DNA from: Candidatus Parcubacteria bacterium
GTDB lineage: Bacteria; Patescibacteriota; Minisyncoccia; Phycocordibacterales; GCA-2747955
NCBI GenBank assembly: GCA_027024305.1
Contig: JALVSO010000027.1
Location: 1,959-25,958 of the forward strand
Direction: 5' to 3'
Length of the DNA: 24,000 bases
The translations under genes and the position numbers were made by a program. A model generated the notes under the pieces. That model was given only the letters and a program-made list of their open reading frames with translations. It did no database searches and had not been told where the DNA came from. Below are positions 8,851-24,000 of the stretch, piece after piece. Each line of letters starts with the position of its first letter. The stretch's first letter is position 1.

Positions 8851-8856
8851 GTTTTA

Positions 8857-9652: not shown

Positions 9653-9697
9653 AATTCTATTTTAGCCGAAAAAGAAATAAAAAGCGAGAAGAGGAGA

Positions 9698-9724
9698 AAC
9701 ACCGAGGTCTTGCCTCGGTGTTTT
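9698..9724. repeat. conserved hairpin AAACACCGAGGtcttgCCTCGGTGTTTT, copy 2 of 2
   Basis: Identical to 4041-4070. It again lies between divergently oriented gene starts (9652 minus, 9749 plus). Confidence 0.7.
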
Positions 9725-9748
9725 ATGATTTTGTGTTACAATTCCCCT

Positions 9749-10129: not shown

Positions 10130-10141
10130 CGATTTTTTTTT
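10102..10141 (+). terminator. intrinsic terminator overlapping the 3' end of the toxin gene
   Basis: ATCGTTAAA-gaattat-TTTAACGAT stem flanked by A8 and T9 runs. Confidence 0.65.
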
Positions 10142-10498
10142 GAAACTTTCTCCCCCTGTAAAATAGGGGGCGAGACCTAAGCCAACTATATTGGTAGTAT
10201 ATTATAAAGAAAAAAGAAAGTCAAATTTTTTAAAGCTTTATTGTTTATATTAAAATTTAATCTGTTAATAAGTTATAAGTCGCAAGTGATAATCACCTCT
10301 ATAGTAATTAGATAGATAGTGGTTGCCTTGGTAAAAAGTGAGGTAATGAATTAGAGAAACAGTTTAAATCACCATTATTTTAGCTGAGAATACTGTTTTT
10401 TTTCTTAAAATAATGCAATAATTAAGTATTTTTATGACAAAAAAATAGCTGAAATGTGTTGAAAAATAAGGGTTTTCTAAAAATAGACACAAAAAAGC

Positions 10499-10527
10499 TT
10501 GACAAATAAATCAAAATAGTATATAAT
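10499..10527 (+). promoter_or_regulatory. consensus sigma70 promoter (TTGACA, 17 nt, TATAAT)
   Basis: TTGACA at 10499-10504 and TATAAT at 10522-10527, exactly 17 nt apart, inside a 900-bp AT-rich ORF-free region. Confidence 0.6.
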
Positions 10528-10533
10528 GCGGTC

Positions 10534-10700
10534 AGATTTTGAAAGATTGGGAAAAATTATGAAGGAGAGAGCATAATTTTTCTGAGAAAAGGAAAGGCTT
10601 TGAGAGACAAATCCAAAAATGGATTTATCTCACAAGGTCTTTGTTGACCGACCTCGGTCAGTGAAGAAAGCACTCTCTCCACGGGAGTGCTTTCTTTTTC
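10534..10700 (+). ncRNA. candidate ~165-nt small RNA (consensus promoter to intrinsic terminator)
   Basis: Bounded by the promoter above and the terminator GAAAGCACTC-9 nt-GAGTGCTTTC plus T5 (10666-10699). It contains a perfect 11-bp hairpin GAAAAATTATG-aaggagagag-CATAATTTTTC with an SD-like loop. No credible ORF. Family not recognised. Confidence 0.4.
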
Positions 10701-10736
10701 CCAGAAAAATTATACTTCGGAAATTTCTCAATCTTT

Positions 10737-10846
10737 CATCGGTCTTTAAATAACATATTAATTTATGTTCCATGTAGTCAGGTGGGTAGGTTAATACGGG
10801 TCTTGGAACAGGACTGCGGAACGCTCCACCCTTCGGTTCAACCGAT
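10737..10846 (+). ncRNA. possible ~110-nt structured element closed by CATCGGT/ACCGATG
   Basis: Long-range complementarity 10737-10743/10840-10846. Internal pairings include G-U wobbles (GTAGTC/GACTGC, GGTGG/CCACC). The only ORF here is an implausible minus-strand one (10630-10851). Confidence 0.25.
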
Positions 10847-10864
10847 GACAAGGGCTACAAACCG

Positions 10865-10933
10865 TTTTGTAAAGAAACGGCTGGAATTAAAAAGTCTAAC
10901 CAACTTTTTAATTCCGGAAATTTCTTTACAAAA
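10865..10933. repeat. long two-tier inverted repeat (69 nt hairpin)
   Basis: TTTTGTAAAGAAA..CTGGAATTAAAAAGT-ctaacca-ACTTTTTAATTCCGG..TTTCTTTACAAAA. That is 13 + 15 bp of pairing with one G-U. Confidence 0.6.
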
Positions 10934-10982
10934 TTTGTAAAGAAAAATTCGTTTCTTTGACAAAGGTTTTAAAAAATACTTC

Positions 10983-11012
10983 TTAACTGAAATATTTTTT
11001 AAACAATATAAT
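10983..11012 (+). promoter_or_regulatory. putative promoter at the AT-rich/GC-rich transition (TTAACT, 18 nt, TATAAT)
   Basis: TATAAT at 11007-11012 and TTAACT at 10983-10988. It would start transcription ~11020, reading into the structured region and the hammerhead. Confidence 0.4.
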
Positions 11013-11019
11013 GTCAAAA

Positions 11020-11563
11020 TTTGTTAAAGATCCCCGGAAAAGAAGCCGGACTTGTCAGGTATGGTTCGGCGTGTGGTTGCTGACAAGTCCGGCTTCGTGA
11101 AAACTCCGGTCAGATCTTTGGCGGATTTTTGGAAAAAATATGGATTGCTTCCCTCCACATCCGTTCCTCTCGCAATGACGACCACCGGAGGTGGTCGTTG
11201 GGACGGCGACCTGCGGTCGCCGTCATTACGAGGAGCTCGCGACGAAGTAATCCATGCAGACATTCGTCACCGTTATGTATTTTTCAAGATACCCGGTTTG
11301 TCGGCAATCACACGCCTAACCATACCCAACAAACCGGGTATCAATTTTTTCCAAAAATCCGCCCCAGGGTGGAAACAAAATGGAGGCGATGACACTGCCA
11401 TTTTTGAAGCTAAACAAAAGGTTTTAGATTCAAAAATGGCAGTGGGGCTCGTAGAGAGCGGGGCTACCCCGGCGAGGTAAACAAACTCGTCCTTGGTGAA
11501 ATTCCAAACATTGCCTTCAAATACAGAGAAGTTCAGCGTGGTTCGTTGAGCTTCTCTGCCGTC
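11020..11563 (+). ncRNA. candidate ~540-nt highly structured RNA ending at the hammerhead cleavage site
   Basis: No plausible ORF (the tracked ORFs here are Arg/Pro-rich shadows). Perfect 17-bp hairpin at 11042-11058/11080-11096. 19-bp long-range helix GGCGGATTTTTGGAAAAAA (11120-11138) / TTTTTTCCAAAAATCCGCC (11345-11363) enclosing hairpins at 11178-11198 and 11202-11224. 14-bp hairpin GATACCCGGTTTGT/ACAAACCGGGTATC. 16-bp hairpin CACTGCCATTTTTGAA/TTCAAAAATGGCAGTG. Confidence 0.45.
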
Positions 11564-11609
11564 CCGGAGTGTGCGCTCCGGCTGATGAGTCCAAAAGGAC
11601 GAAACGGTA
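11557..11609 (+). ncRNA. type III hammerhead self-cleaving ribozyme
   Basis: UGCCGUC|CCGGAG-ugugcg-CUCCGG-CUGAUGA-GUCC-aaaa-GGAC-GAAA-CGGUA. The full catalytic core is present (CUGAUGA, GAAA, GUC cleavage triplet). Stem I is 6 bp with a closed loop and stem II is 4 bp with G10.1-C11.1. Stem III is open and 6 bp (ACGGUA/UGCCGU, one G-U). Predicted cleavage is between 11563 and 11564. Confidence 0.85.
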
Positions 11610-11810
11610 AAATTGTCACGGTATGACTGCGGGATAACGAGGAAGCGACGCGGAATGACGCTGAAAAGTCCACCCTGACAAAAATAACGAAGTCCGACTT
11701 CGTTGCCTGTTCCGAAGCGAGATTTTAGCGATAAATTCTTGTCGCTAAAATCTCGCTCTTCGGAGCGAAAAGGTTCCGGCGTGTATTCGCCGGGTAAATT
11801 TAACTGAAAA

Positions 11811-11881
11811 TCACCGAGGCAAATATCCCCTATAAGCTGAAGATTATCCTTCAGTGAAATGGGGAGAATAAGCCGAGGTGA
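11811..11881 (+). promoter_or_regulatory. three-tier stem-loop in the 5' UTR immediately upstream of the RBS of the next gene
   Basis: TCACC..GGC / GCC..GGTGA, TCCCC/GGGGA and CTGAAG-attatc-CTTCAG are nested. It ends 6-14 nt before the AGGAGAG RBS and ATG 11895, and it covers the alternative ATG at 11859. Confidence 0.4.
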
Positions 11882-11894
11882 TCAGGAGAGAAAG

Positions 11895-12272
11895 ATGGCC
11901 AAGGTCATCCGTATCTCCCGCCACCCGCTGGGTGGTGATCGGGAGGCGGCTCTCAAGGCCGCCTTCGGCGATGACGTGGAAATCGTCACCGTCGATGTTC
12001 CCTATGGGGACGACCCCGTTGCCACCGTCGGTCAGCTGATTGACCGGGAAGGGGATGTCGTGGCCGTTGAGGCCCAGGCGCCCTTTCCGGTGACCATGAA
12101 GCTGGTCGACGCGAACCGGAAGCTGGGTGTTAAGTTCGTCCGCGCCGAATTCAAGCGCGGTGCGGATGGACGGGCTGTTGTCGTTGGTCAAGACGACAAT
12201 GGTCGCGACATCCTGGCTTTCGATCGCTACGTGGAGTTGCGTCGTATCGTTATTGATACGGCGGAGCTCTAA
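11895..12272 (+). CDS. hypothetical protein (125 aa)
   Basis: ATG 11895 is preceded by CAGGAGAG. The tracked ORF starts at 11859, but that ATG lies inside the stem-loop without an RBS. Protein-like composition (MAKVIRISRHPLGGDREAALKAAFGDDVEIVTVDVPYGDDP...). TAA stop. Family not recognised. Confidence 0.65.
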   Translation: MAKVIRISRHPLGGDREAALKAAFGDDVEIVTVDVPYGDDPVATVGQLIDREGDVVAVEAQAPFPVTMKLVDANRKLGVKFVRAEFKRGADGRAVVVGQDDNGRDILAFDRYVELRRIVIDTAEL

Positions 12273-13430
12273 CGGGCGACCGGCCGGGTGGCGGCGGTAC
12301 CGGCAACGTCAAGCCGGGCGTGCAGCTATGCGCGGTGGTAACGGTGAGCAACGGCTCATCATTCCGAAAGCCGATAATGGCAAATAGTGGGGATTCCGCT
12401 CCCCTTGTAGCGGGATTGACTGGAGGAGGATAATCCGATGGACAATTAGTAGCGCCGAGTCCTGGCGCCATAACAGAAATGAGGACAGCCAAAAGTGAGT
12501 GGTTTCACTTTTGGTGACCCCGGGAGGAGGGCGGCTCCTCTCAGTCGTGCACTATGCACGCAACCGTCCGAGGCGGTTCCTCGGCATGGCCTTAGGGAGG
12601 ACCTATGGCTATTTAAAAAGGCGCCTGGAGACAGGGGCGCCCGATAAATACCACTCCCTCGGGGGCAGGACGAGTTCCGGGAGAAGGGGTGAGAAGTTGC
12701 TAGCCCCGGGATATGAGACCTGCCATCATATTCCGAAATCGAAGCAACTATTGGTTGACTCCCGAGCGTGGTTTGTTCGGGGGCTTTATTGAGTCGGTAA
12801 TTTTAGATTATCGGCTCATAGAGCAAGAGGGGGGGTTGCCTTTCTCCTCCCATTCAGTTTCAAGAAGTACGGATAACTTCTTGAACCTCCGGGTCGTGCT
12901 CGGAGTTTGAATAAAAATCGGTCGGCAAAGGATTGCCGACCGGTTAGAATGACTCGGAGAAGCTTAGTTGGTCGGGCTTCTCTTAAAAAAAGTTACCATG
13001 GGGCTTAATGGCTCCATGGTAACCGGACCAACCCTCCACATTGGAGGAAAATAGGGTGTTGTTTCCTTCACCCTCCCAATTCTGAGAGTCAAGGACTACT
13101 CTCAGGATCTTCGCAAGGCGGAGTTTGGGAAAGTTTTCCATAAAAGGAATTTATGGAAGACAAAGGAAACTCGGGCCCTTATAACCGGAGGGCCTTAAAG
13201 GTAGCCCCCGCCTTGGTTAGGCGGGGGTTAGGTTGCTCCCCCGAGATGGATTTCGGGGGCTTTATTGGGCAGATCTGTTTTACAGGTCTGTCCATAGAGA
13301 ATTGAACAAACTCTTTCACCTGACTTTCTCTTCTGCAAAGAAAGTCATTGAAGGGTGGAAGGGGTTAAATTTTAATAGGGCTCAGGCCCCTCCGCCGCGC
13401 TTTTTTCATGGGCGCGGAGCAGACGGAGCA
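12273..13430 (+). ncRNA. ~1.15-kb ORF-free, hairpin-dense region (candidate large structured RNA or array of small RNAs)
   Basis: At least 9 perfect 7-10-bp hairpins: 12489-12514, 12860-12884, 12919-12942, 12992-13023, 13082-13105, 13205-13227, 13238-13259, ~13321-13347. Two are terminator-like units ending ...TTCGGGGGCTTTATTG (12758-12795, 13238-13269). The tracked ORFs here have non-protein-like composition. Strand is assumed from the neighbouring genes. Confidence 0.4.
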
Positions 13431-13447
13431 CCTTAAGGAGGTGAAAC

Positions 13448-13687
13448 ATGAATGAAGACAAAAAAAAAGAGGTGGAGTGGGTCTTGGCCAACTTCACCAA
13501 GGAGGAGGTCCTCGGGGAAATCGAGGATCTGGAAAGGCGAATCCCACTTGAGTGGGAGGACGCTAATGATGCATATTCCGAGCCCTGTGCGGGCGCGGAA
13601 TCGAACTATTATTCAATAGTTCGAGGAATCGACGAAATGGAGGAGCGCCTGGAAGCGTTCCGGGAAGCATATAGGCTCCTCCAGTAG
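13448..13687 (+). CDS. small acidic hypothetical protein (79 aa)
   Basis: Strong RBS AAGGAGGTGA 7 nt upstream of the ATG. TAG stop, followed by an intrinsic terminator. Confidence 0.65.
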   Translation: MNEDKKKEVEWVLANFTKEEVLGEIEDLERRIPLEWEDANDAYSEPCAGAESNYYSIVRGIDEMEERLEAFREAYRLLQ

Positions 13688-13708
13688 ATTTAGATTCCTG
13701 TGCACATT

Positions 13709-13757
13709 TCCCGAGCGGTGGTGTTGTAGTGACATTACCCGCTCGGGACTTTTTTTG
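13709..13757 (+). terminator. intrinsic terminator, CCGAGCGG-hairpin family copy 1
   Basis: TCCCGAGCGG...CCGCTCGGGA 10-bp stem with an inner GTA/TAC helix, followed by CTTTTTTT. It is near-identical to 18115-18160. Confidence 0.8.
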
Positions 13758-13782
13758 AAAATTCAAAAATTTGAATTTTCAA
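13755..13782. promoter_or_regulatory. perfect 13-bp inverted repeat TTGAAAATTCAAA-aa-TTTGAATTTTCAA (operator-like)
   Basis: Exact palindrome read directly. It lies between the terminator and the module-end repeat. Confidence 0.4.
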
Positions 13783-13802
13783 AGAAGGGATTTCCGGGGA
13801 AC

Positions 13803-13875
13803 AAATCTTTTGCAACGTTTTTGAACGTCCCAGGGACGTACCGGAATTTGGATTTGAATCTGCCTAGAGTTTTTT
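13803..13875 (+). repeat. module-end repeat, copy A1 (short version)
   Basis: AAATCTT...TGAACGTCCCAGGGACGTACCGGAATTTGGATTTGAATCTGCCTAGAGTTTTTT. It shares the ACGTCCCAGGGACGT palindrome and the GATTTGAATCTGCYTAGAG+T-run tail with 22168-22320 and 23826-23978. GC content drops immediately after it. Confidence 0.75.
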
Positions 13876-13896
13876 AGAAATTTAAAAAAGAAAATT

Positions 13897-14088
13897 ATGA
13901 AAGAAATTATATTTATAACATCCATCATTTCAGGTCTCCTGATATTTTTTATCTTTATTTTCTCTTTGGATTTGGATGCCGGAATTATGGCTATTTTGGC
14001 AGCCTTTTTTGGTTCGGCCTATAACCGGTTATATCTTTTTCTAAATCATTTATTTAGAGAAAAACATCCGGAGAAAAGTGAGTTTTAA
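13897..14088 (+). CDS. possible small two-TM membrane protein (63 aa) in an AT-rich patch
   Basis: Intact ORF with hydrophobic segments (IIFITSIISGLLIFFIFIF, IMAILAAFFG). Weak RBS. Its AT-rich composition is unlike the flanking GC-rich blocks. Confidence 0.4.
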   Translation: MKEIIFITSIISGLLIFFIFIFSLDLDAGIMAILAAFFGSAYNRLYLFLNHLFREKHPEKSEF

Positions 14089-14126
14089 AATGTCTTTTGA
14101 AATGAAAACAGCTAGTCTTGCATTTT

Positions 14127-14174
14127 CCGAGCGGTATTTTGTTGACAAAACTTTGCCGACAAAATACCGCTCGG
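14127..14174. repeat. 16-bp perfect hairpin of the CCGAGCGG family (no T-run)
   Basis: CCGAGCGGTATTTTGT-16 nt-ACAAAATACCGCTCGG. Its outer arms are the same as the two terminators at 13709 and 18115. Confidence 0.6.
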
Positions 14175-14345
14175 GAGAGTGGTGAATTGGCTTTTGCAGA
14201 GCCCATCTTTAGTCTGAAAGCATAGCTGCAAAGAATATGCTTTCTGGGTGATCCGCGACCAACAAGACTGCGGGGAGTGCTAGGTTCTGAACTTCCAACA
14301 ATAGGAAGGAATGAAGCGCTCAAGCTCAAAATTCGGAGGTGAATA

Positions 14346-15458
14346 ATGAGCAAAAAAAACATTGCGGAGCTGGCTCCGCAAAAAAATGTGGCGGAAAAGA
14401 TTTCTCAGGCTCTGTCTGAGAATTTTATCCGCTCCGAGAGAGTTGCCCGTATTCTCGCCCTTGCGGTGGAATCGGGCAAAAATGTATTACTTTGGGGGCC
14501 GGGCGGACACGGCAAGTCCGAGATGGTGGAGCTTGCGCTCGCGCAAGTCGCCGACTCGGACGACGTGTTCGTCCAATCCTTTGGCGAGGGCATGGATGAG
14601 GCAACCCTTTGGGGTGGCCTTGATTTCCAGGCCCTCGAGTCGGAAAAGGTGCTTCGGTATTTTCCGGAGCAAAGCTTCCTTGCGAAGCCTTTTGCCGTCT
14701 TTGAGGAGATCTTTGACGCCCCGGCGTCGGTTCTCCTCGCCCTGAAGGATACCCTGACGGCGCGCAAGCTCCGCAAGGGTGGTCAACAATTTCCTATGGA
14801 AACCAAAGTGATCATCGCGATCACCAACAAGGATCCGGAGGAAATTTCTGACCTCGGCCCCGCCGCAGCTGCTCTGGTGGAGCGGTTCCCGCTCCAGCTC
14901 AATGTAGATTGGGACTCCTATGAGGCCCGGGACTACACCGAGCTGTTTGATAAGGTCGGATCTCGGCTCCCGGGGGCGGATCTCAACGGCACCCAGCGGG
15001 TGCTGGCGGAGATTATCGCCAAGGCTTCGGCCGATGGCGATATTATTTCACCCCGCACCGCGGTTCACGCCCTCGGCGTGGTCAAGACCGCGGCGGCCCT
15101 GCGAGGCTCAGACCGGGTGGAGAAGGAGGACCTGGTGGACCTCCAGTACCTGCCCGGCATGGAGGACCTGGCGGATAATATCCGTCAGGAGTTGGACGCC
15201 GCCTACGAGCGGGCCGAGGCAGAGCGCCGGCTGGTTGCGGCCGAGGATCGGTTGCGTGAACTGTTGGCGGAGCTCCACGACGCAACGACGCCAATCAAGG
15301 CACTCCAAGTTGCTCGCCGCCTGCAGTCTCTGCAGGACGACACCAGCAACCTGAAAGTGCCGGACGGTCTCACCGACCGGCGCAAAAACCTGCGCAACTC
15401 TATCAGCGAGAAGGTGCAAGCGGCGCAGGAGCTTGCCCTTCAAAACACCCGCATCTAG
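14346..15458 (+). CDS. MoxR/CobS-like AAA+ ATPase (370 aa)
   Basis: RBS GGAGGTGA. Walker A LLWGPGGHGKSE, Walker B-like AVFEEIFDA, and sensor-like IIAITNKD and ISPRTAV. C-terminal coiled-coil-like tail. TAG stop. Confidence 0.8.
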   Translation: MSKKNIAELAPQKNVAEKISQALSENFIRSERVARILALAVESGKNVLLWGPGGHGKSEMVELALAQVADSDDVFVQSFGEGMDEATLWGGLDFQALESEKVLRYFPEQSFLAKPFAVFEEIFDAPASVLLALKDTLTARKLRKGGQQFPMETKVIIAITNKDPEEISDLGPAAAALVERFPLQLNVDWDSYEARDYTELFDKVGSRLPGADLNGTQRVLAEIIAKASADGDIISPRTAVHALGVVKTAAALRGSDRVEKEDLVDLQYLPGMEDLADNIRQELDAAYERAEAERRLVAAEDRLRELLAELHDATTPIKALQVARRLQSLQDDTSNLKVPDGLTDRRKNLRNSISEKVQAAQELALQNTRI

Positions 15459-15473
15459 CGGGAGGAGGAAAAA

Positions 15474-16850
15474 ATGAACTTTACGTTCAGAACAACTCCT
15501 CCCGCTACCTATATCCCTCCGAACTCGGAGGAGATGCGGGAGGTCGCGGCTAAGGTCGGGCTGAAGGGATTCAGCCGCGACCTGGTCGCGGACCTGTGTA
15601 ACCTGGCGGCGGGGGGAGCAATCCAACCCCCGTCGGCGTATCGGGAAATCGTACACCGGCAGGTGGAGGAAAAGCTCCCTGCCCCCGATAGCGATGGCGA
15701 GTGGTCGGTTGGAGGTGGCTACACCAAAGACCGTCTGCAAGCTATCAATCACCGCCTGGAAAAAGCGATGAGATACCATCAGAATGTCTGCGATTTCTTG
15801 CAGACGGTGGACCTCAGCGCCTTTCCCGGCCGAAGCCCCCTTGAGCAGGCCATGAGCTTGCTCAAGCTGCTTTCCAAGCAGGAGGGTGGCTCCGGCGGCG
15901 GTGAGGGGGGCGAGCCCCTGCCCATCTTCCAGGACAATGATCGTCCGGAAGGTGTCGCCGAAAAACTCCATGAGACCATGGAGTTGGCGGAGTCGCTGGA
16001 CGAGACCGAGCAGGAGATGCTCGATCCGGATGGTGACTGGCAGGAGGATGCCGAGCAGGATGGACAGGAAACCGGCTCCTCGGGGCTTCAAGCCCTGAAG
16101 GTTGCCGAGGACCTGGTCGACGGGAGTGACAAGCGCGCCATGCTTGAGATTTCCCGTCAGCTTGACCAGTTTACCAAGCTGCAAGTGCGGCGACAAAAAC
16201 TGGTCAAGCCAGATCCTACCGGCGACGAAATCCGAACCCGGGGCATCAAGCATCTTGGAGAACTCGGCAGAGTCTCCAAAAGTGCTTGGGCCACCCGCCA
16301 ACAACAGCCGACGTACTTTTTGTACCAGGCTGTGACCGGTCAGCTCCCCGTTCGGGAGCGGGTGACCCGCCAGGAGAAGAAACAGGCGATCTTCATCCTG
16401 GTTGACGGCTCCGGGTCTATGGAGGGCCGCAAACACCACAAGGCCACGGGGGTGGTGATGAACCGCCTCAAGGCAGTGGTGGACGGCGACGCGGAGGTTT
16501 GGGTTTCGGTCTTTGACACCGAAATGTCCAATCCAATGCATGCCGGAAATGCGGAGGAGGCCCGGGAACTGATCAAACAGTTCCGTCATGGCAACTTCCG
16601 CGGCGGCGGCACCGACATCGCCAGCGCGGTGAAAGCCGCGCACGCCTTCATTGAGGAAAAGATGAAGGCGGGCGAGGCGCTTTGGAGACCGGAAGTGGTA
16701 GTCCTCACTGATGAGGACAGCTCCACGCAAGGTCTCCGCAAGTCTGAGGTCAAGGGCACTCGTGTCCACGGATTTGCAATCGAGCGCAAAAACAAGCCGC
16801 TGGTGACTTTTGCCAAGTCAACCGGCGGCGTGGGGATTGAAAACTTTTAG
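15474..16850 (+). CDS. von Willebrand factor A (vWA/MIDAS) domain protein (458 aa)
   Basis: RBS GGAGGAGG. It starts 15 nt after the AAA+ gene. C-terminal vWA domain with the MIDAS motif ILVDGSGSM plus GGGTDI and VVVLTDED. Acidic linker. TAG stop. Confidence 0.8.
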   Translation: MNFTFRTTPPATYIPPNSEEMREVAAKVGLKGFSRDLVADLCNLAAGGAIQPPSAYREIVHRQVEEKLPAPDSDGEWSVGGGYTKDRLQAINHRLEKAMRYHQNVCDFLQTVDLSAFPGRSPLEQAMSLLKLLSKQEGGSGGGEGGEPLPIFQDNDRPEGVAEKLHETMELAESLDETEQEMLDPDGDWQEDAEQDGQETGSSGLQALKVAEDLVDGSDKRAMLEISRQLDQFTKLQVRRQKLVKPDPTGDEIRTRGIKHLGELGRVSKSAWATRQQQPTYFLYQAVTGQLPVRERVTRQEKKQAIFILVDGSGSMEGRKHHKATGVVMNRLKAVVDGDAEVWVSVFDTEMSNPMHAGNAEEARELIKQFRHGNFRGGGTDIASAVKAAHAFIEEKMKAGEALWRPEVVVLTDEDSSTQGLRKSEVKGTRVHGFAIERKNKPLVTFAKSTGGVGIENF

Positions 16851-16874
16851 TTGAATATCCTCTGGTTATTTTCT

Positions 16875-16920
16875 GTGAAACTTGGCTTGGTGTGGTGCCA
16901 AGTCAAGTTTCACTTCTTTA
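16875..16920 (+). terminator. probable terminator after the vWA gene
   Basis: GTGAAACTTGGCTTGG-tgtggtg-CCAAGTCAAGTTTCAC (16 bp, one G-U) followed by the U-rich TTCTTTAT. Confidence 0.55.
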
Positions 16921-16970
16921 TCAAGCATCCAAAATGGTTTGGGTGCTTGTAGAGAAAAGGAGGTGAAAAA

Positions 16971-17012
16971 ATGAAAAATCGGGATCCTCCGATGATGCCC
17001 GAACTCGGCTAG
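16971..17012 (+). CDS. possible 13-codon micro-ORF (MKNRDPPMMPELG) with a very strong RBS
   Basis: AAGGAGGTGA lies 6 nt upstream of the ATG and the ORF ends in TAG. It sits at the start of a 0.7-kb non-coding region. It could be a leader peptide or coincidental. Confidence 0.25.
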   Translation: MKNRDPPMMPELG

Positions 17013-17564
17013 GGCTAAAACACTCTGAGGCCGACGGTTGGGCCGAGACACCGTTGGGGCGATGTTCCTGCCGATGGAGCCCGTTTCAGTATATTTCAAG
17101 ACCGGAGAGCTGCTGACTCTTTGATGGCTTGGGATATGGTAAAGCTGAATGGCCGGGTGATGCCGGTAAAACAAACATCAACACGAAGCAATGGTTAGAG
17201 AACATCCAGCCAAGTGTATTGCCCGTGCAAAAAACGGGTGTATAAAAATCTCAACTCCGGTTTTCCCGGGGCGGCATGGTGTCGTAGATACGCAATGCGG
17301 CACTTAACCTCTTACTAACGGAGGATGGTTATGCGTATAAGGGACCCCCCTTAGGTTTTGGTCATTTTCATTCTAATAATTATTGGAGTGGAAATGACCT
17401 TGGATAGAGGAAGTGCTTGGTAGTGCTTCCTCTCTACTTTTGGGAATATAACTTTTAGGAGTTGTATTTCCAAGGAGTGGATTTTTCTCTTTTAGTGAAG
17501 CGGGATAGAGAGCCTGAAGTTTTTTGGGTTTTGTCTTCCGTTTCACTAATTTAGGGAGGGTAGT

Positions 17565-18107
17565 ATGGAATTTTTTTCTAAGGATGGAGGTGTTGTTGTT
17601 GTGCCGTGGGGCACACAGCAACACCTCCGCGCTCACCCGGACGTCTTGGATGTCCTGGGTGAGGCAATTTCAAAAATTGAACTCCCCACGGATGGGGAGT
17701 TTCTGAAAACGACCGTTGATCTGGGAAGGGTTATCGGTCGTTCCGGGGCGGTGGAGACCGACCCGATTCAATACGACGAGCAGACCTGGTTTGCCCATCG
17801 TATTGGGCGGGACGGACCTTCACGTGTTGTTTTGGACACGGAAGGTCCGGAGGTTTCCACCGTTGCGATCCTGGCGTTCCAAGCCAGGGATCGCAGCACC
17901 GGGAAAATCCAGCCGGGCAAGTACATCCTTGCTACGGCATGGATCGGCTCGGCGGAGGCCGAGCGAGAGCCCTGGGACAAGGGCATAAAAACAGAGCGGG
18001 AGCGCCAAGCCGCACTGCGGTATTGGTGCTCCCATGCTCTGGTCTATGACAAGGAGGTCATGGACAAGCCCTTCCAATCTTCATGGAAGGAGATTTTGGA
18101 AGGGTGA
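17565..18107 (+). CDS. hypothetical protein (180 aa)
   Basis: RBS GGGAGGG. Globular-looking composition. Apparent TGA stop followed by an intrinsic terminator. Family not recognised; the N-terminal HLRAHPD is only a weak hint of a nuclease-type His motif. Confidence 0.65.
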   Translation: MEFFSKDGGVVVVPWGTQQHLRAHPDVLDVLGEAISKIELPTDGEFLKTTVDLGRVIGRSGAVETDPIQYDEQTWFAHRIGRDGPSRVVLDTEGPEVSTVAILAFQARDRSTGKIQPGKYILATAWIGSAEAEREPWDKGIKTERERQAALRYWCSHALVYDKEVMDKPFQSSWKEILEG

Positions 18108-18114
18108 ATCTTTT

Positions 18115-18160
18115 TCCCGAGCGGTGGTGTTGTGGTGACATCACACGCTCGGGACTTTTA
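18115..18160 (+). terminator. intrinsic terminator, CCGAGCGG-hairpin family copy 2
   Basis: TCCCGAGCGG...CGCTCGGGA followed by CTTTTATT. The inner helix GTG/CAC covaries with GTA/TAC in copy 1. Confidence 0.75.
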
Positions 18161-18206
18161 TTGTGCCGGTAACTTTCCAAGTTACGGGCACATAGAAGTT
18201 TTTCAT

Positions 18207-18324
18207 TTTTTTTCACGGACTCCCTTGTCCGTTCAATTGTGCCGGTGATGAACCGGAAGTCCTACGGGGCGCGAACAGACAAGGGGCTTGCCGAAAGGTG
18301 AGTGTTCTGTTCGTGGAGAGAGAA
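18207..18324 (+). promoter_or_regulatory. structured 5' leader, copy 1 of 2
   Basis: ~95% identical to 19042-19159. It contains ACGGAC-tccctt-GTCCGT, CCGG-tgatgaa-CCGG, and GAACAGA...[CUUGCC-GAAA-GGUGAG]...UCUGUUC, then the GGAGAGAG RBS. Confidence 0.6.
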
Positions 18325-19041
18325 ATGAAGGCGTTGGAAAAAATCAACATCGCCGCGCCGTTTGTTTTCGCTGCAGTGGAGTCGATTACCCTGATAGAGC
18401 CCTCTATTTGGAGGGCGAATGCCGACATCCGTTTTTATATGGATATCTGGTATTCGATTTGGGTGGTCAGTGTTGGGATGCAATACGCTCCGAAATGGGC
18501 GATTGCATTTCTTACATGGTCTCTATTGCCACCGCTCCTCGGTGTGTACGAGGGGGCGAGGTACGAAAACGCATCCGATGCATTTTTGCGCCTTGATGCG
18601 TTGATTTGCGTAGGGTTTTTGCTCTACGAAATAGCAATCATAGAGGTTGCCCATCACCACTTTGAAAAAGTTTTTGGATGGCTCCTGCCGTCCAAATATG
18701 AGGTGGTGGAGCGCATCGGTGTATCATGGATGATCCGGTGTTACAAGGAGTTGTATCGCCAAATGGCGCGATGGTGGAAGGTTGGAGGAAATCATGGATT
18801 GATGATTCTTTGCGCCTTAAGTTTTGCCAAATTCTTTGGTAACTCGGGACAAAAAAGAGGGAATTTGCTTCTCCACGAGATTGAGACCAGTGAAGTCTCA
18901 GTTCGTATCGCCGACAATGGAGATATAGTTTTGTCGGCAAGCAAGCGGACCCTAGACGTCGCAACCATTGCGATACGAAAGGCGGAGGAAGGCGGATTAA
19001 GCGCCGCCGTTGAATTCCTCCATTCGCACGCGGAAGTTTGA
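18325..19041 (+). CDS. hypothetical membrane protein (238 aa)
   Basis: ATG 18325 follows the GGAGAGAG RBS; the tracked start at 18298 lies inside the repeated leader. Several hydrophobic, Trp-rich segments. Apparent TGA stop at 19039-19041. Confidence 0.65.
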   Translation: MKALEKINIAAPFVFAAVESITLIEPSIWRANADIRFYMDIWYSIWVVSVGMQYAPKWAIAFLTWSLLPPLLGVYEGARYENASDAFLRLDALICVGFLLYEIAIIEVAHHHFEKVFGWLLPSKYEVVERIGVSWMIRCYKELYRQMARWWKVGGNHGLMILCALSFAKFFGNSGQKRGNLLLHEIETSEVSVRIADNGDIVLSASKRTLDVATIAIRKAEEGGLSAAVEFLHSHAEV

Positions 19042-19159
19042 TTTTTTTCACGGACTCCCTTGTCCGTTCAGCTTTGCTGGTGATGAGCCGGAAGTCCTGC
19101 GGGGCGCGAACAGACAAGGGGCTTGCCGAAAGGTGAGTGTTCTGTTCGTGGAGAGAGAA
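19042..19159 (+). promoter_or_regulatory. structured 5' leader, copy 2 of 2
   Basis: It starts immediately after the preceding stop codon. About 6 substitutions relative to copy 1, including CCGG>CTGG, which keeps pairing as G-U. Confidence 0.6.
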
Positions 19160-22100
19160 ATGAGCAACAAAAAGTTGCCGGTCGCGGAGTTCCGCGAGCA
19201 AATCGTTTCAACCGTTGCCTCTAATCCGGTAACGGTCATTACAGCTGAGACCGGCGCGGGCAAGTCCACGCAGGTGCCTCAGTACCTGCTGGACGAGGGT
19301 TACAACATCGTTGTGACCCAACCCCGGCGGTTGGCTGCTCGGACTGTTGCCGAGCGCGTGGCCGAGGAATACGGTTGCGAGTTTGGCGATATCGTTGGCT
19401 TCCGCACCGCCCATGACCGCCAGGACAGCGACAACACCCGTTGTCTTTTTGTCACGGATGGTCTGGCGCTGGTGCGTGAGCTTATGGGTGCCGGCACCCA
19501 CGACTGCCTGATTCTTGATGAGGTTCACGAGTGGAACCTCAATATTGAGGTACTCGTGGCGTGGGTGAAGAAGCAGGTCGCCCGGAATCCCAAATTCAAA
19601 GTGGTGCTGATGAGTGCCACTTTGGAGGCGGAGAAGTTGGCGAGCTTCTTTGGCGGTGCGCCCATCATTGAGGTGCCGGGACGTACCTTCCCCGTGGAGG
19701 AGCGCAAAGTCGGTGAAAGCCTGCACGACGACATTGTTGAGCTTGCTCGGCAGGGTCGAAATGTGCTGGTTTTCCAGCCCGGCAAGGCAGAAATTGAGGA
19801 AACCGTCAGGTACCTTGAAAATCTGCCGGACCTGGACGCCAGGGTTTTGCCGCTTCACGGTGGCTTGACCAAGGAGCAGCAGGCGGCGTGCTTCAAAAAC
19901 TATCACCAACCGAAGATTGTCGTCAGCACCAATGTCGCGCAGACATCGGTGACCATTGATGACATTATTGCGGTTGTTGATTCCGGGATGGAGCGCCGGG
20001 TGGAGCTGGTGGACGGGGTTGAGGGCTTGTACCTGCGCCCCATTTCACTGGCCGATGCCAAGCAGCGCCGGGGGCGTGCCGGCAGGACCAAGCCGGGGAT
20101 TTATATCGATCACTGCCCGGCCAAGCCGGAAGATCGGCGTGAGTTCCCGATGGCGGAAATCCTGCGGGTGCGCCTGGACCAAACCGTTCTCCGTTTGGCT
20201 ATGGCTGGCTTTGATATGGAGGAGCTTCGGTTCTTCCATCAGCCCAATATTGCTGAAATCCATGAGGCCAAGCGTGCTCTGCATGCTCTGGGTTGCATGG
20301 ATGAGAACGGGAAGGTTACGGAGGTTGGTCGCGCTGTTTCCCGTTTGCCGGTCTCCGTTCAGTATGGGCGGATGATTGTGGAAGCGGAGAAGCTCGGGGT
20401 TGTGGGCGATGTTATCAAGATCGCCGCAATTCTGGAGCAGGACGGCATCACCGCCCGCAAGGTCAAATTGGATGACCGCTGGGTGGAGGCTAAGCCTCTG
20501 TGGCTGCCGCTGACCAACGGGGAGAAGGAGTCGGACGCTCTGGCTCAGCTCAATGTGTATGAAAATGCACAGAGCATGAGCAAGTCCCAGATGTATGAGT
20601 CTGGGGTCTTCGTGAAGGACTTTTATTTCGCGAAGGAGCGAGTTCGCCTCCTGAAAAAAGCGCTGGAAAGGAGGGTTCGTCATATGGACTCAACCGGAAA
20701 GCGCGAGGACATTCTCCGGGCGGTTCTTGCCGGGATGGTGGATCACTTGTATAAGTATAATTACGGTGATTACCAAAACGGCGATGGGGTCAACCGCCGG
20801 ATCAACAAGGATTCCGTTGTATCTGGTGGCGACTGGATTGTCGGTAAACCCTTTGACCTGGAAATCAACGGTCGTTACGGACCGTTCACCATTAATTTGG
20901 TGACCATGGTCACAAAGGCGGACCCGATGATTCTGGCGGAAGTGGCACCCCAGCTGGTGACCATTGAAGCCGGTCTTTCTCCGCGATACAGTGTCGATCG
21001 AGGGTGTGTGGTATCTACCACAAAAACGCTCTTCAACGGCATGGTTATCAAGGAGGAGGAGGTTGATGACATCAACCATCCCGAAGCGTCGGCCATCCTG
21101 GATGAGCAGGCATGGAAGGAGTGGAAAGGTCCGGAGATTCTGGTTCCCGATTTCAGTTTGGCGGGTGAACTGCCGGCTGAAATTCCGGAAATCCGCGAGG
21201 AGGTCTATATCAAGTCGCGGGTGGATGGTCGTCCACTTTCTGCCTATGGGGTCGTTTATCATGACTCCTGGTCTGGTTGGAAAAGTAAGTGGACGCGGGA
21301 CCGGAAGGAGGCCGAAAGTCTCCACGAGCAAGCCGAGAAGAAGCTTGCCGAACTCCGGAAACAAAAAGCCGTCCGCGACTGTATTGAGCGCGAGCTTGAT
21401 GCGGTCAACCGTCGCCGGGAGGCGATCGGTTTGTCTCCGATTAAAATGCGGGATTCCGGTTTTTCTCACAACGGTTGGTCGCGAGACTATACCGAGGAGA
21501 AGTGGGAGAAGGTATTGCAGGAGACGGCGGATAAGGAAGCCGAGGCGGCTGCTGAGCGGGCCCGGGCCGAGAAGGAAGCCAAGGAGGCACGCCTCATTGA
21601 GGAAGGTGCCTTTACCGGTTTCACCGGGGTCTGGTGCCGTCGTAGTGGCTCCAACCAGGGTGATGGCTGGGTCATTCGTCCGGGCGGTTCTTTTCGGGAG
21701 CACGACTCCATTGATAACCCTCGTCCGCGTTACAAGAGTGAAGGGTATAAGTCGTGGAATGTTGTGCGCCCGGATGAACTGGCCATTTCCTGGCGGAAGC
21801 ATACCCGGGCCTCCGAACACGAGTTCGAAGTTGCTCATCTGCCGGAGTCTTTGACTGCCGAGCAGGTGAAGGCGATGGAGACTCTGCTGGAAGAACTGGA
21901 GGAGGCTTGGGACGGCGCCACCGGCCTGGCTTCGGGCAAGAAGAGCCCGAGCGTTGGTGAGGGTTGGGTTAACCCTGAGACGGGCGAAAGTCTGACCAAG
22001 GGGTTCCGGACCTCTCGTCAAAAGCGGGAGGGTTCCGAGGCTAGCTGGACCGGAAAGGCCGGAGGGGTTGAAGAGGAGACCAACTCCGTTGTTTATGAGA

Positions 22101-22162
22101 CGGGAGAGGTTGATTTCAATAATCCCTTCGCCGCTCTGGCCGCCCTGAAGGGGAAACTCTGA
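19160..22162 (+). CDS. DEAH/RHA-family (HrpA/HrpB/DHX-like) helicase with a long uncharacterised C-terminal extension (1000 aa)
   Basis: ATG 19160 follows the GGAGAGAG RBS; the tracked start at 19010 runs through the leader repeat. Motifs: TAETGAGKST, ILDEVHE, SAT, TNVAQTSVTIDD, QRRGRAGR. These are followed by HA2/ratchet-like and OB-like regions (WIVGKPFD...MVTKADPMILAEVAP). About 380 aa follow with a Lys/Glu/Ala coiled-coil and no family I recognise. Apparent TGA stop. Confidence 0.85.
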   Translation: MSNKKLPVAEFREQIVSTVASNPVTVITAETGAGKSTQVPQYLLDEGYNIVVTQPRRLAARTVAERVAEEYGCEFGDIVGFRTAHDRQDSDNTRCLFVTDGLALVRELMGAGTHDCLILDEVHEWNLNIEVLVAWVKKQVARNPKFKVVLMSATLEAEKLASFFGGAPIIEVPGRTFPVEERKVGESLHDDIVELARQGRNVLVFQPGKAEIEETVRYLENLPDLDARVLPLHGGLTKEQQAACFKNYHQPKIVVSTNVAQTSVTIDDIIAVVDSGMERRVELVDGVEGLYLRPISLADAKQRRGRAGRTKPGIYIDHCPAKPEDRREFPMAEILRVRLDQTVLRLAMAGFDMEELRFFHQPNIAEIHEAKRALHALGCMDENGKVTEVGRAVSRLPVSVQYGRMIVEAEKLGVVGDVIKIAAILEQDGITARKVKLDDRWVEAKPLWLPLTNGEKESDALAQLNVYENAQSMSKSQMYESGVFVKDFYFAKERVRLLKKALERRVRHMDSTGKREDILRAVLAGMVDHLYKYNYGDYQNGDGVNRRINKDSVVSGGDWIVGKPFDLEINGRYGPFTINLVTMVTKADPMILAEVAPQLVTIEAGLSPRYSVDRGCVVSTTKTLFNGMVIKEEEVDDINHPEASAILDEQAWKEWKGPEILVPDFSLAGELPAEIPEIREEVYIKSRVDGRPLSAYGVVYHDSWSGWKSKWTRDRKEAESLHEQAEKKLAELRKQKAVRDCIERELDAVNRRREAIGLSPIKMRDSGFSHNGWSRDYTEEKWEKVLQETADKEAEAAAERARAEKEAKEARLIEEGAFTGFTGVWCRRSGSNQGDGWVIRPGGSFREHDSIDNPRPRYKSEGYKSWNVVRPDELAISWRKHTRASEHEFEVAHLPESLTAEQVKAMETLLEELEEAWDGATGLASGKKSPSVGEGWVNPETGESLTKGFRTSRQKREGSEASWTGKAGGVEEETNSVVYETGEVDFNNPFAALAALKGKL

Positions 22163-22167
22163 GGGGT

Positions 22168-22320
22168 GGATTTGGGAGGAGGTGTTGGTTACACCTTCCT
22201 CCCTCCGGCTGTCATTTCTGGCAGCCGGGCTTTATAGCGGGTTTAAATCTTCTGAACGTCCCAGGGACGTACCGAACCCAGGGACGTACCGGATTTGAAT
22301 CTGCTTAGAGTTTTTTTGGA
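22168..22320 (+). repeat. module-end repeat, copy A2 (153 bp)
   Basis: It differs from 23826-23978 at only 2 positions. Layout: hairpin GGGAGGAGGTGT-tggtt-ACACCTTCCTCCC, hairpin CCGGCTG..CAGCCGG, then ACGTCCCAGGGACGT with a tandem duplication of CCCAGGGACGTACCG, then GATTTGAATCTGCTTAGAG plus T7. Confidence 0.85.
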
Positions 22321-22531
22321 AGATTTTAGGGAATAATTTTATAAGAATTTTAAAAGTAAATTAGTATTTCCCTCTTTGTATTTTTAGGAATATAAAGAGG
22401 GGGTTGTTAATACCCTCGTGCGTCTTAGCCGTTTAGGCTGTGCTCGACGCACAGCCCATGCAGAGGCATGGGTTAATTATGTGCCTGCGGGGATAGCCTT
22501 CATGGCTTGAAACGCGGGTGGAGGTCCTGAA

Positions 22532-23371
22532 ATGGACAAAAAAAACAAGGCGGCGACTGCCTCTAAAGTCGCAAAAAATCTGGTATTTTTTCTTGGTGGT
22601 GCCGACGCAGAGATGCGTCGCATCGCCGAGGTGCTGGCAGAGGCCGGCATTGAATACCATGACGCCGGCCTGGGCTGGGGCGCTGCCGCCTCGGCCTACG
22701 GTGACGCCATCGCCGAGGCCTCCGGCGCCGGCAAGACGCCGGTGCTGGTGGAGTTGGAGGTCGACTGCGACCTGCCCGAGGGGGTGGTCGTGGTTGACCA
22801 CCATGGAGATCGTGCCGGCGAGCCGCCGGCCATTCTGCAGGTTCTCAACCTGCTCGGCAGGGAGCCGAGTCGGTGGGACCTGCTGGTGGCGGCCAACGAT
22901 GCCGGGTGGTTTCCCGGTCTCGTTGGTGAGGCGGAGATCCCCGGTATGGGGCGTTTCTCCCCGCCGGCGACGGCGGAAGAGATGGCGGCGGTTCGTGCCA
23001 CTGACCGGGCCGCTCAGGGCATTACGCCTGAGCAGGAGCGGGAGGCGGAGCGGGCGCTGGCTGCCCTCGTTGAGGAGATTGGCGGCGTTCGGGTCATCCG
23101 GATGAGCCACTCCAAGACGGCACCGATTGGCGACCGCCTCGCCATTGATGCCCTCGCCTCCGGCCGGCCCATCCCGGCCTACCTCGTCCTCTCCGGGGAC
23201 GGGGAGGTGAACTTCTCGGGTGACGGTGCACTGGCCGCCGCCCTTCATGAGAAGTTCCCGGGTGGCTGGGCCGGCGGTGCCGGCCTCGGCAAGGTTGGGG
23301 GAAGCGCCTTTTGGGGCGGCTACCCCGACCACGAGGAGGCCCTCGCGTTCATTCGCGAGTATACCTCCTAA
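22532..23371 (+). CDS. hypothetical protein, weakly DHH-phosphoesterase-like (279 aa)
   Basis: RBS GGTGGAGG. It contains VVVDHHGD and a Gly-rich C-terminal segment (GGWAGGAGLGKVGGS). The assignment rests on short motifs only. TAA stop. Confidence 0.6.
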   Translation: MDKKNKAATASKVAKNLVFFLGGADAEMRRIAEVLAEAGIEYHDAGLGWGAAASAYGDAIAEASGAGKTPVLVELEVDCDLPEGVVVVDHHGDRAGEPPAILQVLNLLGREPSRWDLLVAANDAGWFPGLVGEAEIPGMGRFSPPATAEEMAAVRATDRAAQGITPEQEREAERALAALVEEIGGVRVIRMSHSKTAPIGDRLAIDALASGRPIPAYLVLSGDGEVNFSGDGALAAALHEKFPGGWAGGAGLGKVGGSAFWGGYPDHEEALAFIREYTS

Positions 23372-23604
23372 TCGAACTTCGCCACCGAGAGTGAAGTGAA
23401 ATAAAGTGCTCGGCCCGGTGCCTGCGTGGTGCAGGCGCCGGGAGGTTTGAGGCAAGCTTGGTTAAGTTTGCCTTTCTTATTCCGATTGCAAGGGTGTTTC
23501 TTTGCGGTCGGATAGGAAATTAGTCGCCGGGCTTTGTTGAGAGGTTCGGCAAAAATCAACTTTGCGGTGAGGGTAAAGACCCAACAATCCGCGGGAGACC
23601 AGCC

Positions 23605-23826
23605 ATGGCAGAAATATGCCATAATATAAAATGGGCACTAATCTGCCCATGGTCCTACGTCGTCATCCACCCGAACGGATACACCGTTCTGGTGGACAGG
23701 TACGAATGGAATCGTTTGGCAGAGGCCAAGGAAAGGGCCTATGAAGAGAACCAAAAAACCGATGCATATCTGCATCGGGTGTATGGGCCGTTTTGGCGCC
23801 CATATATTGATTCCAAAATATGTTAG
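23605..23826 (+). CDS. small Trp/Tyr-rich hypothetical protein (73 aa)
   Basis: Intact ORF with a GGGAGA RBS-like sequence. TAG stop, followed directly by repeat copy A3. Confidence 0.5.
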   Translation: MAEICHNIKWALICPWSYVVIHPNGYTVLVDRYEWNRLAEAKERAYEENQKTDAYLHRVYGPFWRPYIDSKIC

Positions 23827-23978
23827 GATTTGGGAGGGGGTGTTAGTTACACCTTCCTCCCTCCGGCTGTCATTTCTGGCAGCCGGGCTTTATAGCGGGT
23901 TTAAATCTTCTGAACGTCCCAGGGACGTACCGAACCCAGGGACGTACCGGATTTGAATCTGCTTAGAGTTTTTTTGGA
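23826..23978 (+). repeat. module-end repeat, copy A3 (153 bp)
   Basis: Near-identical to 22168-22320. AT-rich sequence resumes after the T-run. Confidence 0.85.
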
Positions 23979-24000
23979 GTTTTTAGAAAAACTTTTCTTG

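Follow-up and report, generated by a model that had tools for sequence, protein, structure and literature searches.

Structured leaders and possible translational coupling

Several genes of RNA metabolism are preceded by structured autoregulatory leaders, such as the 5' untranslated region (UTR) element of RNase E (rne), the pnp leader and the leaders of ribosomal-protein genes. In the MS2 coat–replicase pair and in many bacterial operons, translation is coupled through the unmasking of a structured downstream Shine–Dalgarno sequence (SD). The first bases after a stop codon lie under the footprint of the terminating ribosome. The locus described here belongs to a stretch of 24,000 nucleotides (hereafter the window) from a Candidatus Parcubacteria bacterium (assembly GCA_027024305.1, contig JALVSO010000027.1, positions 1,959 to 25,958). 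In this window a 121-nt segment occurs twice, each time ending at a start codon: first that of an uncharacterised gene, called gene A here, and then that of the next gene, which encodes an HrpA-like DEAH-box RNA helicase. We consider it reasonably probable, taking the parts together, that this segment is the complete structured 5' leader of the helicase mRNA, that it acts as a translational operator, that gene A was inserted along with a second copy of it, and that translation of the helicase is coupled to that of gene A.

Gene regulation in the Candidate Phyla Radiation (CPR)/Patescibacteria is almost uncharted, and few cis-regulatory RNAs specific to these bacteria are known. At 121 nt the leader is a compact candidate; it has five helices, loops of the GNRA and UNCG types, and perhaps a pseudoknot. 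The gene to which it is tied encodes an HrpA-like RNA helicase, and the literature yielded no described leader for HrpA, for this bacterial enzyme class or for a CPR helicase; a paper on 224 motifs mentions no helicase-associated leader.

Two copies of the leader in the window

The segments 18207-18327 (copy A) and 19042-19162 (copy B) are identical at 115 of 121 bases (95.0%; BLAST E 2.5e-52, nhmmer E 1.9e-31). The original prediction had claimed a near-identical 121-nt leader that includes the ribosome-binding site and the ATG and precedes two unrelated coding sequences, and this was borne out: the proteins encoded by gene A (238 aa, ATG at 18325) and by the helicase gene (1000 aa, ATG at 19160) are unrelated. 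Both copies terminate in GGAGAGAG-AA-ATG. The second copy does begin directly after the upstream stop codon, as had been noted, since the TGA of gene A occupies 19039-19041 and the T-run of copy B starts at the next base, 19042. Beyond the 5' end of both copies, there is only weak similarity over about 10 nt, with an indel: GAAGTTT(TTCA/GA)T7-8. A covariance-model scan of the whole window with filters off recovered the two leader copies only, at 139.6 and 137.1 bits, the next best match scoring 12.9 bits. The elements of the two copies and the genes that they precede are the following.

18207..18327, + strand: leader copy A, which starts at the T-run and ends with the ATG of gene A
18207-18214, + strand: anti-SD pyrimidine tract of copy A
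18215-18220 with 18227-18232, + strand: helix H1 of copy A, loop UCCCUU at 18221-18226
18242-18246 with 18252-18256, + strand: helix P3 of copy A
18259-18262 with 18267-18270, + strand: helix P4 of copy A, loop UACG
18273-18279 with 18306-18312, + strand: helix H6 of copy A
18280-18285, + strand: CAAGGG of copy A
18286-18292 with 18297-18303, + strand: hairpin P5 of copy A, loop GAAA
18315-18322, + strand: SD of copy A, GGAGAGAG, followed by the ATG at 18325-18327
18325..19041, + strand: gene A, encoding a helical membrane protein of 238 aa from a rare and uncharacterised family, bracketed by the leader copies
19042..19162, + strand: leader copy B, from the base after the TGA of gene A to the helicase ATG; its sub-elements are those of copy A shifted by 835 nt
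19042-19049, + strand: anti-SD tract of copy B
19050-19067, + strand: H1 of copy B
19077-19091, + strand: P3 of copy B
19094-19105, + strand: P4 of copy B, loop UGCG
19108-19114 with 19141-19147, + strand: H6 of copy B
19121-19138, + strand: P5 of copy B
19150-19157, + strand: SD of copy B, followed by the ATG at 19160-19162
19160..22162, + strand: HrpA/HrpB-like DEAH-box helicase, 1000 aa (Pfam DEAD, Helicase_C, HA2)

The six differences between the copies (at 18236, 18237, 18239, 18243, 18252 and 18264) all fall in leader positions 30-58; for six random differences, the probability of clustering within at most 29 nt is 0.0025. All are structure-neutral: three are in a junction, one keeps the UNCG loop of P4 (UACG to UGCG), and two give G-U pairs in P3. 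The latter are the change at 18243 (CCGG to CTGG), which converts a C-G pair to U-G and so preserves pairing as had been predicted, and that at 18252 in the same helix, which converts U-A to U-G. The segment that holds the differences is also variable among orthologous leaders. Such structure-neutral, clustered differences fit purifying selection or gene conversion acting on both copies.

The sense strands of the two copies fold at -54.1 (A) and -53.5 (B) kcal/mol, with z-scores of -5.3 and -4.0 relative to shuffled controls. The reverse strand folds poorly by comparison (about -33 kcal/mol, z about -1.6), and an antisense function of the leader was rejected on this ground.

Conservation of the leader with the helicase

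The helicase matches the NCBIfam HrpA model with an E-value of 4e-94, under the equivalog cut-off, and gives only weak generic helicase matches in PADLOC. A collection of 5.8 billion proteins contains only three homologues that are at least 69% identical to it (69–80%). Its best named homologues are from Candidatus Pacebacteria and Kaiserbacteria, and the related loci carry genes for ribosomal proteins L19 and L21, RuvC, YebC, a PBP and RNR, a setting of small bacterial genomes. On these grounds too, a CPR/Patescibacteria genome is the probable source of the window.

In each of three orthologous loci a single leader ends at the helicase ATG (L004 9958-10087, L005 946-1084, L006 2190-2316), and it scores 131–137 bits with covariance model R1. 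The L004 helicase open reading frame (ORF), as called, runs into the leader; the alignment of the N-termini, MSNNKLPVAGFRDQI versus MSNKKLPVAEFREQI, puts the true start after it. The genes that flank the leader and the helicase differ among the three loci, and the leader plus helicase is therefore a conserved unit. Five blocks are invariant in all five leader sequences of this type (type 1): CUCCCUUGU, GGAAGU, GGGGCGCGA, AGACAAGGG and UGUUCUGUUCGUGGAGA.

Apart from the inserted gene A, the leader occurs with this helicase clade only. An orthologue at 51% identity (L015) has a short and different upstream region, which makes the leader clade-specific. Its orientation and position are fixed at orthologous start codons in several genomes, which is the generic expectation for a cis-regulatory leader. 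On the sequence side, an autogenous leader is expected to accompany a gene whose product binds RNA and to be found with that gene only, and both hold for the DEAH/HA2 helicase.

The leader is conserved in a small clade of genomes that are probably CPR/Patescibacteria. Exact 24-nt and 21-nt leader patterns are absent from the viral contigs and species genomes scanned, and a degenerate core pattern gave only chance matches in coding DNA among genomes and metagenomes, the L006 contig excepted. A pattern of the 5' part had 10 matches in viral contigs, none of which was confirmed by the covariance model; the best (12.9 bits) is an unrelated GC-rich spacer. Comparison of 14000-24000 with phage records by megablast gave no match. 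None of the 4227 models of Rfam 15 matches the window at gathering thresholds, and at E-values up to 10 the region 18100-19300 has only a spurious microRNA match, which lies on the opposite strand and outside the leader.

Other identities were tried and rejected. A dispersed repeat of the repetitive extragenic palindrome or miniature inverted-repeat element type does not agree with a segment that is present in two copies only, both in the sense orientation and both ending at an ATG, and in one copy in relatives. A conserved upstream ORF or leader peptide was discarded, as the AUG at leader position 42 is found in the window copies only, the AUG in L004 is in another frame, and L005 and L006 have none. 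A crude terminator scan flagged P5 followed by GUUCUGUUC as a possible transcription attenuator, but the tail is poor in U and is paired in H6, for which reason this identity was not adopted.

Structure and covariation

The proposed fold is composed of H1, P3, P4 with its UNCG-type loop, and the long H6, which encloses the tetraloop hairpin P5; pairing between the pyrimidine tract and the SD would close the domain. The invariant loop of H1, CUCCCUUG, is complementary to the invariant CAAGGG, with which it might form a pseudoknot; the predicted energy of this duplex alone is about -9.6 kcal/mol. The two hairpins described at the outset were located, namely ACGGAC/GUCCGU (H1, 18215-18220 with 18227-18232) and GCUUGCC-GAAA-GGUGAGU (P5, 18286-18303) nested inside GAACAGA/UCUGUUC (H6).

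The further copies at the three orthologous helicase loci vary in ways that preserve these helices. In L004, H1 changes from ACGGAC/GUCCGU to GCGAAC/GUUCGC, which amounts to two compensatory pairs, and P5 becomes GCUCUGGC-GUAA-GUCAGGGU. The P5 hairpin is AUUUUUGC-UUCG-GCAAAAAU in L006 and a longer AU-rich hairpin in L005. Among orthologues P3 changes from CCGGU/ACCGG to CCCGC/GCGGG, and the four-base loop of P4 (UACG, UGCG or UUUG) stays closed by C-G. H6 remains fully paired through GAGCAGA and GAAUAGA, by wobble changes only. Thus structure-preserving variation is seen in H1, the CCGG helix and the tetraloop hairpin, so that the idea of a shared cis-acting leader holds.

In alignment A2, the structure made of H1, P3, P4, H6, P5 and the loop/CAAGGG pairing is paired in 96.4% of cells, compared with 40–53% for control structures slid by 1–3 columns. 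Seven pairs are changed on both sides (two in H1, two in P3 and three in P5), and H6 is 100% paired with two one-sided wobble changes. This compensatory variation in the stems of the type 1 leader, to which four lineages contribute, is indicative, and the H1/P3/P4/H6/P5 arrangement is taken here as the evolutionarily supported fold. Four type 1 lineages, together with the three of type 2 described below, are too few for formal covariation statistics.

Type 2 leaders in distant relatives

Helicase orthologues at 55–59% identity (L012, L013 and L014) carry a different leader, called type 2. Both types have GGAAGUC, a P4 with the same basal pairs (G-C, U-G, C-G), and a helix that encloses a hairpin directly upstream of the SD. 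The type 2 helix next to the SD covaries (CGAGC/GCUCG to CAAGC/GCUUG), and the enclosed hairpin changes from UCGC-GAAA-GCGA to GUGG-UUUGCU-CCAC. The type 1 covariance model does not detect the leaders of L012, L013 and L014; the relationship between the two types therefore rests on a manual comparison, which used GGAAGUC, the P4 base pairs, H6 and the SD. Provided that the helices are homologous, this manual alignment adds three compensated positions to H6 over both types; MAFFT put the 5' strands of H6 in another register. A type 2 pattern had no match in viral contigs.

Hammerhead ribozymes were seen near some of these genes. A type III hammerhead at L014 1133-1187, about 35 nt upstream of the type 2 leader, scores 43.6 bits, just under the Rfam cut-off of 48.5, and another is found downstream of the helicase at L013 8933-8987 (49.6 bits). 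L015 has a CUGAUGA...GAAA look-alike at about 2895-2945 that Rfam does not recognise. The Rfam scan gave no hammerhead match in the window.

Predicted masking of the Shine–Dalgarno sequence and the proposed operator

The pyrimidine tract would pair with GGAGAGAG, close the domain and mask the SD. This pairing is found in 24 of 25 cells of the alignment (columns 11-15 with 132-136). The SD is paired in every predicted fold, with an unpaired probability of about 0.01, and at 37 °C, opening of the region from the SD to AUG+10 is predicted to require 12.9 and 14.4 kcal/mol in the window copies and 6.0–15.0 kcal/mol in the orthologues. Since the SD would be closed by the pyrimidine tract, binding of the ribosome would require that the domain be opened. 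The leader may thus be a translational operator whose opening limits initiation.

The effector would most likely be an RNA-binding protein, possibly the helicase itself. Because the leader travels only with an RNA helicase gene, autogenous control by the helicase is the most economical guess, albeit a tentative one; control by temperature or by a ligand is less likely. Action of the helicase on the leader of its own mRNA would make for an unusual kind of feedback; failing that, the leader still adds to the orphan RNA motifs of narrow distribution.

The anti-SD tract of copy B follows the stop codon of gene A without an intervening base, and for this reason a ribosome that terminates on gene A should melt the anti-SD pairing and expose the SD of the helicase. 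When the first 13 nt of copy B are blocked in silico, the unpaired probability of the first bases of the SD rises from about 0.01 to 0.6–0.9. Translation of the helicase would then be coupled to that of gene A, which would itself be gated by leader A. Translational coupling fits the geometry, in which the gene A stop abuts the anti-SD tract. The repeat, its conservation with the helicase, the variation that keeps the stems paired and the restriction of gene A to this lineage are observations, whereas we infer from the sequence and its predicted folds that the SD is masked in the cell, which effector acts on the leader, that the two genes are coupled and in which direction regulation goes.

Gene A and the origin of the duplication

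Gene A has no Pfam, NCBIfam or PADLOC match, and a word-index protein search found no homologue of it. A full HMMER scan gave 12 remote homologues with 28–42% identity, in which Trp, Pro and Glu positions and the C-terminal end ..NH[AS]E[VI] are conserved; gene A keeps its native N- and C-termini. The family is thus real and rare. Structure prediction gives a helical membrane domain and, C-terminal to it, a small alpha/beta domain (predicted local distance difference test score, pLDDT, of 79); this fold has no match in the PDB (best E 0.76). The only homologue locus recovered, L016, is AT-rich, consists of two genes in an operon and lacks the leader. In L016 the gene ahead of the homologue shows no homology to the 180-aa ORF that lies 5' of leader A, hence there is no evidence for a two-gene cassette, a possibility that was dropped. 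The GC content of gene A is 0.488 (0.548 at third codon positions, GC3), compared with 0.57–0.67 for its neighbours, the helicase being at 0.571.

Gene A is absent from the three orthologous helicase loci. The duplication is recent and specific to this genome; in relatives the leader is single and gene A is missing. What precedes copy A is the ancestral context, a terminator-like hairpin and then a TTATTG-hairpin-CATAGA module, and copy B keeps the ancestral helicase junction, so that the new part is the 835-bp unit made of a leader and the gene A ORF. This unit has the intact native termini of gene A and no spare nucleotides. Copy A agrees with the relatives at four of the five informative sites, and copy B at one of the five. 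The features of the upstream context are these.

18116..18153, + strand: terminator-like GC hairpin CCCGAGCG...CGCTCGGG, then CTTTTATTG, after the 180-aa ORF; ancestral upstream context of the leader
18158..18197, + strand: TTATTG - variable hairpin - CATAGAA module, shortly before leader copy A

Homologous hairpins lie 5' of the leader in L005 (about 858-890) and L006 (about 2096-2135), and there is no terminator-like hairpin ahead of copy B. The TTATTG module is also present upstream of the helicase leaders of L004 (9923-9958), L006 (1773-1812) and L012 (5690-5732).

Gene A, apparently a foreign gene, seems to have entered the locus along with a complete and exact second copy of the leader, and the resulting order would be promoter, leader A, gene A, leader B, helicase. 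A duplication of this kind, in the style of one that runs from the transcription start site (TSS) to the ATG and placed around an inserted gene, is unusual in evolution but has precedents. It would be a natural experiment: on the arrival of a foreign gene in an operon, a complete 5' UTR would have been used again as a module, and the geometry predicts translational coupling. There is little reason to expect, though one may imagine, that the leader is a portable sensor: the helicase would engage the mRNA that encodes it and open the domain that masks the SD, the fold would report the RNA-unwinding capacity of the cell, and the whole TSS-to-ATG unit would be copied before newly acquired promoter-less genes, slaving them to the helicase circuit. 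Such copying might proceed via an RNA or circular intermediate, which is conceivable because the inserted unit is exactly one leader and one ORF.

The last codons of gene A, GAA GTT TGA (19030-19041), resemble the sequence just 5' of leader A (GAAGTTTTTCA, 18195-18206) as well as GGTTTGAGA, 5' of the leaders of L005 (about 935-950) and L006 (about 2180-2195). The ending ..HAEV-stop is nonetheless the native end of the gene A family. This likeness may be an insertion microhomology, or a coincidence.

Alternative explanations

Several observations weigh against the interpretation of the leader as an operator duplicated with gene A. The type 1 leader is available from four independent lineages only, so the covariation rests on few events, most of which come from L004. 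The helices that had been noted are evolutionarily supported, but the minimum-energy fold of RNAfold replaces two of them, H1 and H6, with long-range helices. In this alternative, given by RNAfold and RNAalifold, leader positions 1-14 pair with 103-116 (P1) and 16-28 with 67-79 (P2/P2a). The P1/P2 fold fits every substitution, with 95.5% of cells paired and one compensatory pair, and P1 varies on one side only. It may represent a second state, or the energy model may produce it artefactually. When H1 and H6 are imposed, the penalty is only 4–6 kcal/mol, and the pyrimidine tract still pairs with GGAGAGAG. The loop/CAAGGG pairing is invariant across the sequences. The pairing of the pyrimidine tract with the SD is weak in L004, and its support in type 2 is a 3-bp CCU/AGG contact only. 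The join over the 63-nt identical stretch rests on one assembly; in an independent assembly of this sample at ENA, both copies are breakpoints: one contig ends at 18183, and another starts at about 19109, inside copy B. Finally, a stable 5' structure could merely protect the mRNA.

According to this last idea, which we regard as unlikely though not negligible, the leader would be a stabilising or processing 5' UTR and would not itself be a regulator: it would guard the helicase mRNA from 5'-end-dependent decay or mark an RNase site that separates the cistrons, and the sole reason for retaining the second copy would be that, with gene A inserted, the helicase message still requires a protective 5' structure of its own. 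The domain is indeed very stable and located at the presumed 5' end, copy B begins exactly where gene A ends, and the hammerhead of L014 upstream of a type 2 leader suggests that helicase messages of this clade are cut free there. However, the invariant single-stranded blocks (CUCCCUUG, GGAAGU, GGGGCGCGA and CAAGGG) and five helices exceed what end protection needs, the SD is consistently drawn into pairing, and no ribozyme or known processing motif was found in the window.

That the repeat is a neutral recent segmental duplication, or an assembly artefact, whose second copy has no role is quite improbable. The copies are far more similar to each other than to the orthologues, which implies that the duplication is young or homogenised; the same-sample assembly breaks at both copies, and another intergenic repeat (of 153 nt) brackets two genes in the same window. 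On the other hand, the six differing sites indicate distinct loci in the sample, and all of them spare the conserved blocks and keep pairing. Copy B is the only SD and start context that the helicase has, at the ancestral position by its ATG, and gene A is placed exactly between the copies with its native termini intact.

A small-molecule riboswitch, in which a ligand would stabilise either the H1/H6/pseudoknot fold or the P1/P2 fold and thereby set the access to the SD, is very doubtful. Two mutually exclusive folds do lie within 4–6 kcal/mol of each other, both compatible with all substitutions, and the invariant junction nucleotides and the possible loop-to-internal-loop pseudoknot would suit a ligand-binding RNA. 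Yet the sole conserved downstream gene is that of an RNA helicase, with no transporter or metabolic gene, which is not the gene association expected of a riboswitch. The distribution is very narrow, with no real match in 185,579 species genomes and one in JGI metagenomes; no Rfam riboswitch is similar at E-values up to 10, and the SD is predicted to be paired in both folds.

The least probable of the explanations is a fourU-type RNA thermometer that would tune helicase synthesis by melting of the U-run/SD helix, for even if seven U and one C pair with GGAGAGAG by U-A and U-G, the predicted opening cost falls from about 20–23 kcal/mol at 10 °C to about 8–9 at 55 °C and RNA helicases are often temperature-regulated (review PMC3590241), the energy model weakens any structure with temperature, so that this trend lacks specificity, a helicase induced by cold would have to respond in the opposite way, the U-run is AAAAUUCCC in L004 and absent from type 2, a conserved five-helix core is superfluous for a thermometer, and Rfam gives no FourU match.

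Other features of the window

The terminator-like hairpin upstream of copy A is repeated in the window with 92% identity (13707-13757 versus 18113-18163, TTTCCCGAGCGG...CGCTCGGGAC-TTTT). The module TTATTG - variable palindrome - (C)ATAGAR occurs four times on the + strand of the window, compared with 0.15 expected; all occurrences lie on the coding strand. In this lineage the module might serve as a promoter, a terminator or an insulator. Its occurrences are the following.

12786-12823, + strand: TTATTG module
13262-13299, + strand: TTATTG module
17380-17409, + strand: TTATTG module
18158-18197, + strand: TTATTG module, ahead of leader copy A as given above

A 153-nt intergenic direct repeat, 99% identical, is present at 22168-22320 and 23826-23978, with a partial copy at 13819-13911. 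It folds into three strong hairpins (-79.8 kcal/mol, z -6.6) and brackets a 279-aa DHH-family hydrolase-like gene (PADLOC C3a116 / DHH_CorA) and a 73-aa ORF. It is the second case in the window of genes flanked by duplicated structured intergenic modules; on the speculative view of a portable leader given above, this would hint at a general insertion of cassettes at structured intergenic elements. In the window the DHH-like gene is downstream of the helicase. In L004, an apparent non-coding remnant at 9740-9850, 5' of the helicase leader, resembles the 3' end of the DHH-like gene (compare 23290-23360 of the window), which suggests a rearrangement of the same gene set.

The GC content of the window jumps from about 31–40% (2000-11000) to 50–65% (11500-24000). 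An independent contig, L001 (window 4346-18183), spans the jump. The jump is therefore likely to be real and points to a region that is mosaic or was acquired horizontally. TrmB-, PemK- and PIF1-like genes are found in the low-GC part. The genes at 14346-16850 encode a MoxR-type AAA+ ATPase (Pfam bpMoxR, AAA_5) and, after it, a VWA-domain protein, a pair that is typical of MoxR-vWA ternary conflict systems and that has no PADLOC match.

Comparison with known systems

Like the rne, pnp and ribosomal-protein leaders, the leader described here is a long multi-helix 5' UTR that is conserved with one gene for an RNA-binding or RNA-remodelling enzyme and reaches the SD, and the unit of leader and gene is conserved while the flanking genes are not. 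Unlike them, it has no sequence or structure match in Rfam and is restricted to a handful of CPR-like metagenomic genomes; it is also duplicated before an unrelated gene, and binding by the gene product is putative.

In FourU thermometers a U-run pairs with a purine-rich SD through U-A and U-G pairs, as is predicted for the window copies, L005 and L006. Here, however, the helix is not a simple hairpin and closes a 100-nt domain of five helices, the U-run is not conserved in L004 or in type 2, and the gene belongs to another class.

The leader resembles orphan cis-regulatory motifs (PMC2864571, PMC5737381) in being intergenic, with a fixed orientation and distance to the start codon, covarying stems, GNRA and UNCG loops and invariant junctions. 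It differs from these sets in that it is not among the Rfam 15 models and has too few representatives for covariation statistics. It is thus a candidate for a new cis-regulatory RNA motif with a very narrow distribution.

With respect to coupling, the locus departs from the MS2 type in that the intercistronic distance of 118 nt holds a complete conserved domain, which in relatives is a primary 5' UTR without an upstream ORF. The likeness to the MS2 coat–replicase arrangement lies at the junction: the 5' strand that would mask the SD of copy B follows the upstream stop codon at a distance of 0 nt, where a terminating ribosome would cover it, and blocking this strand frees the SD in silico.

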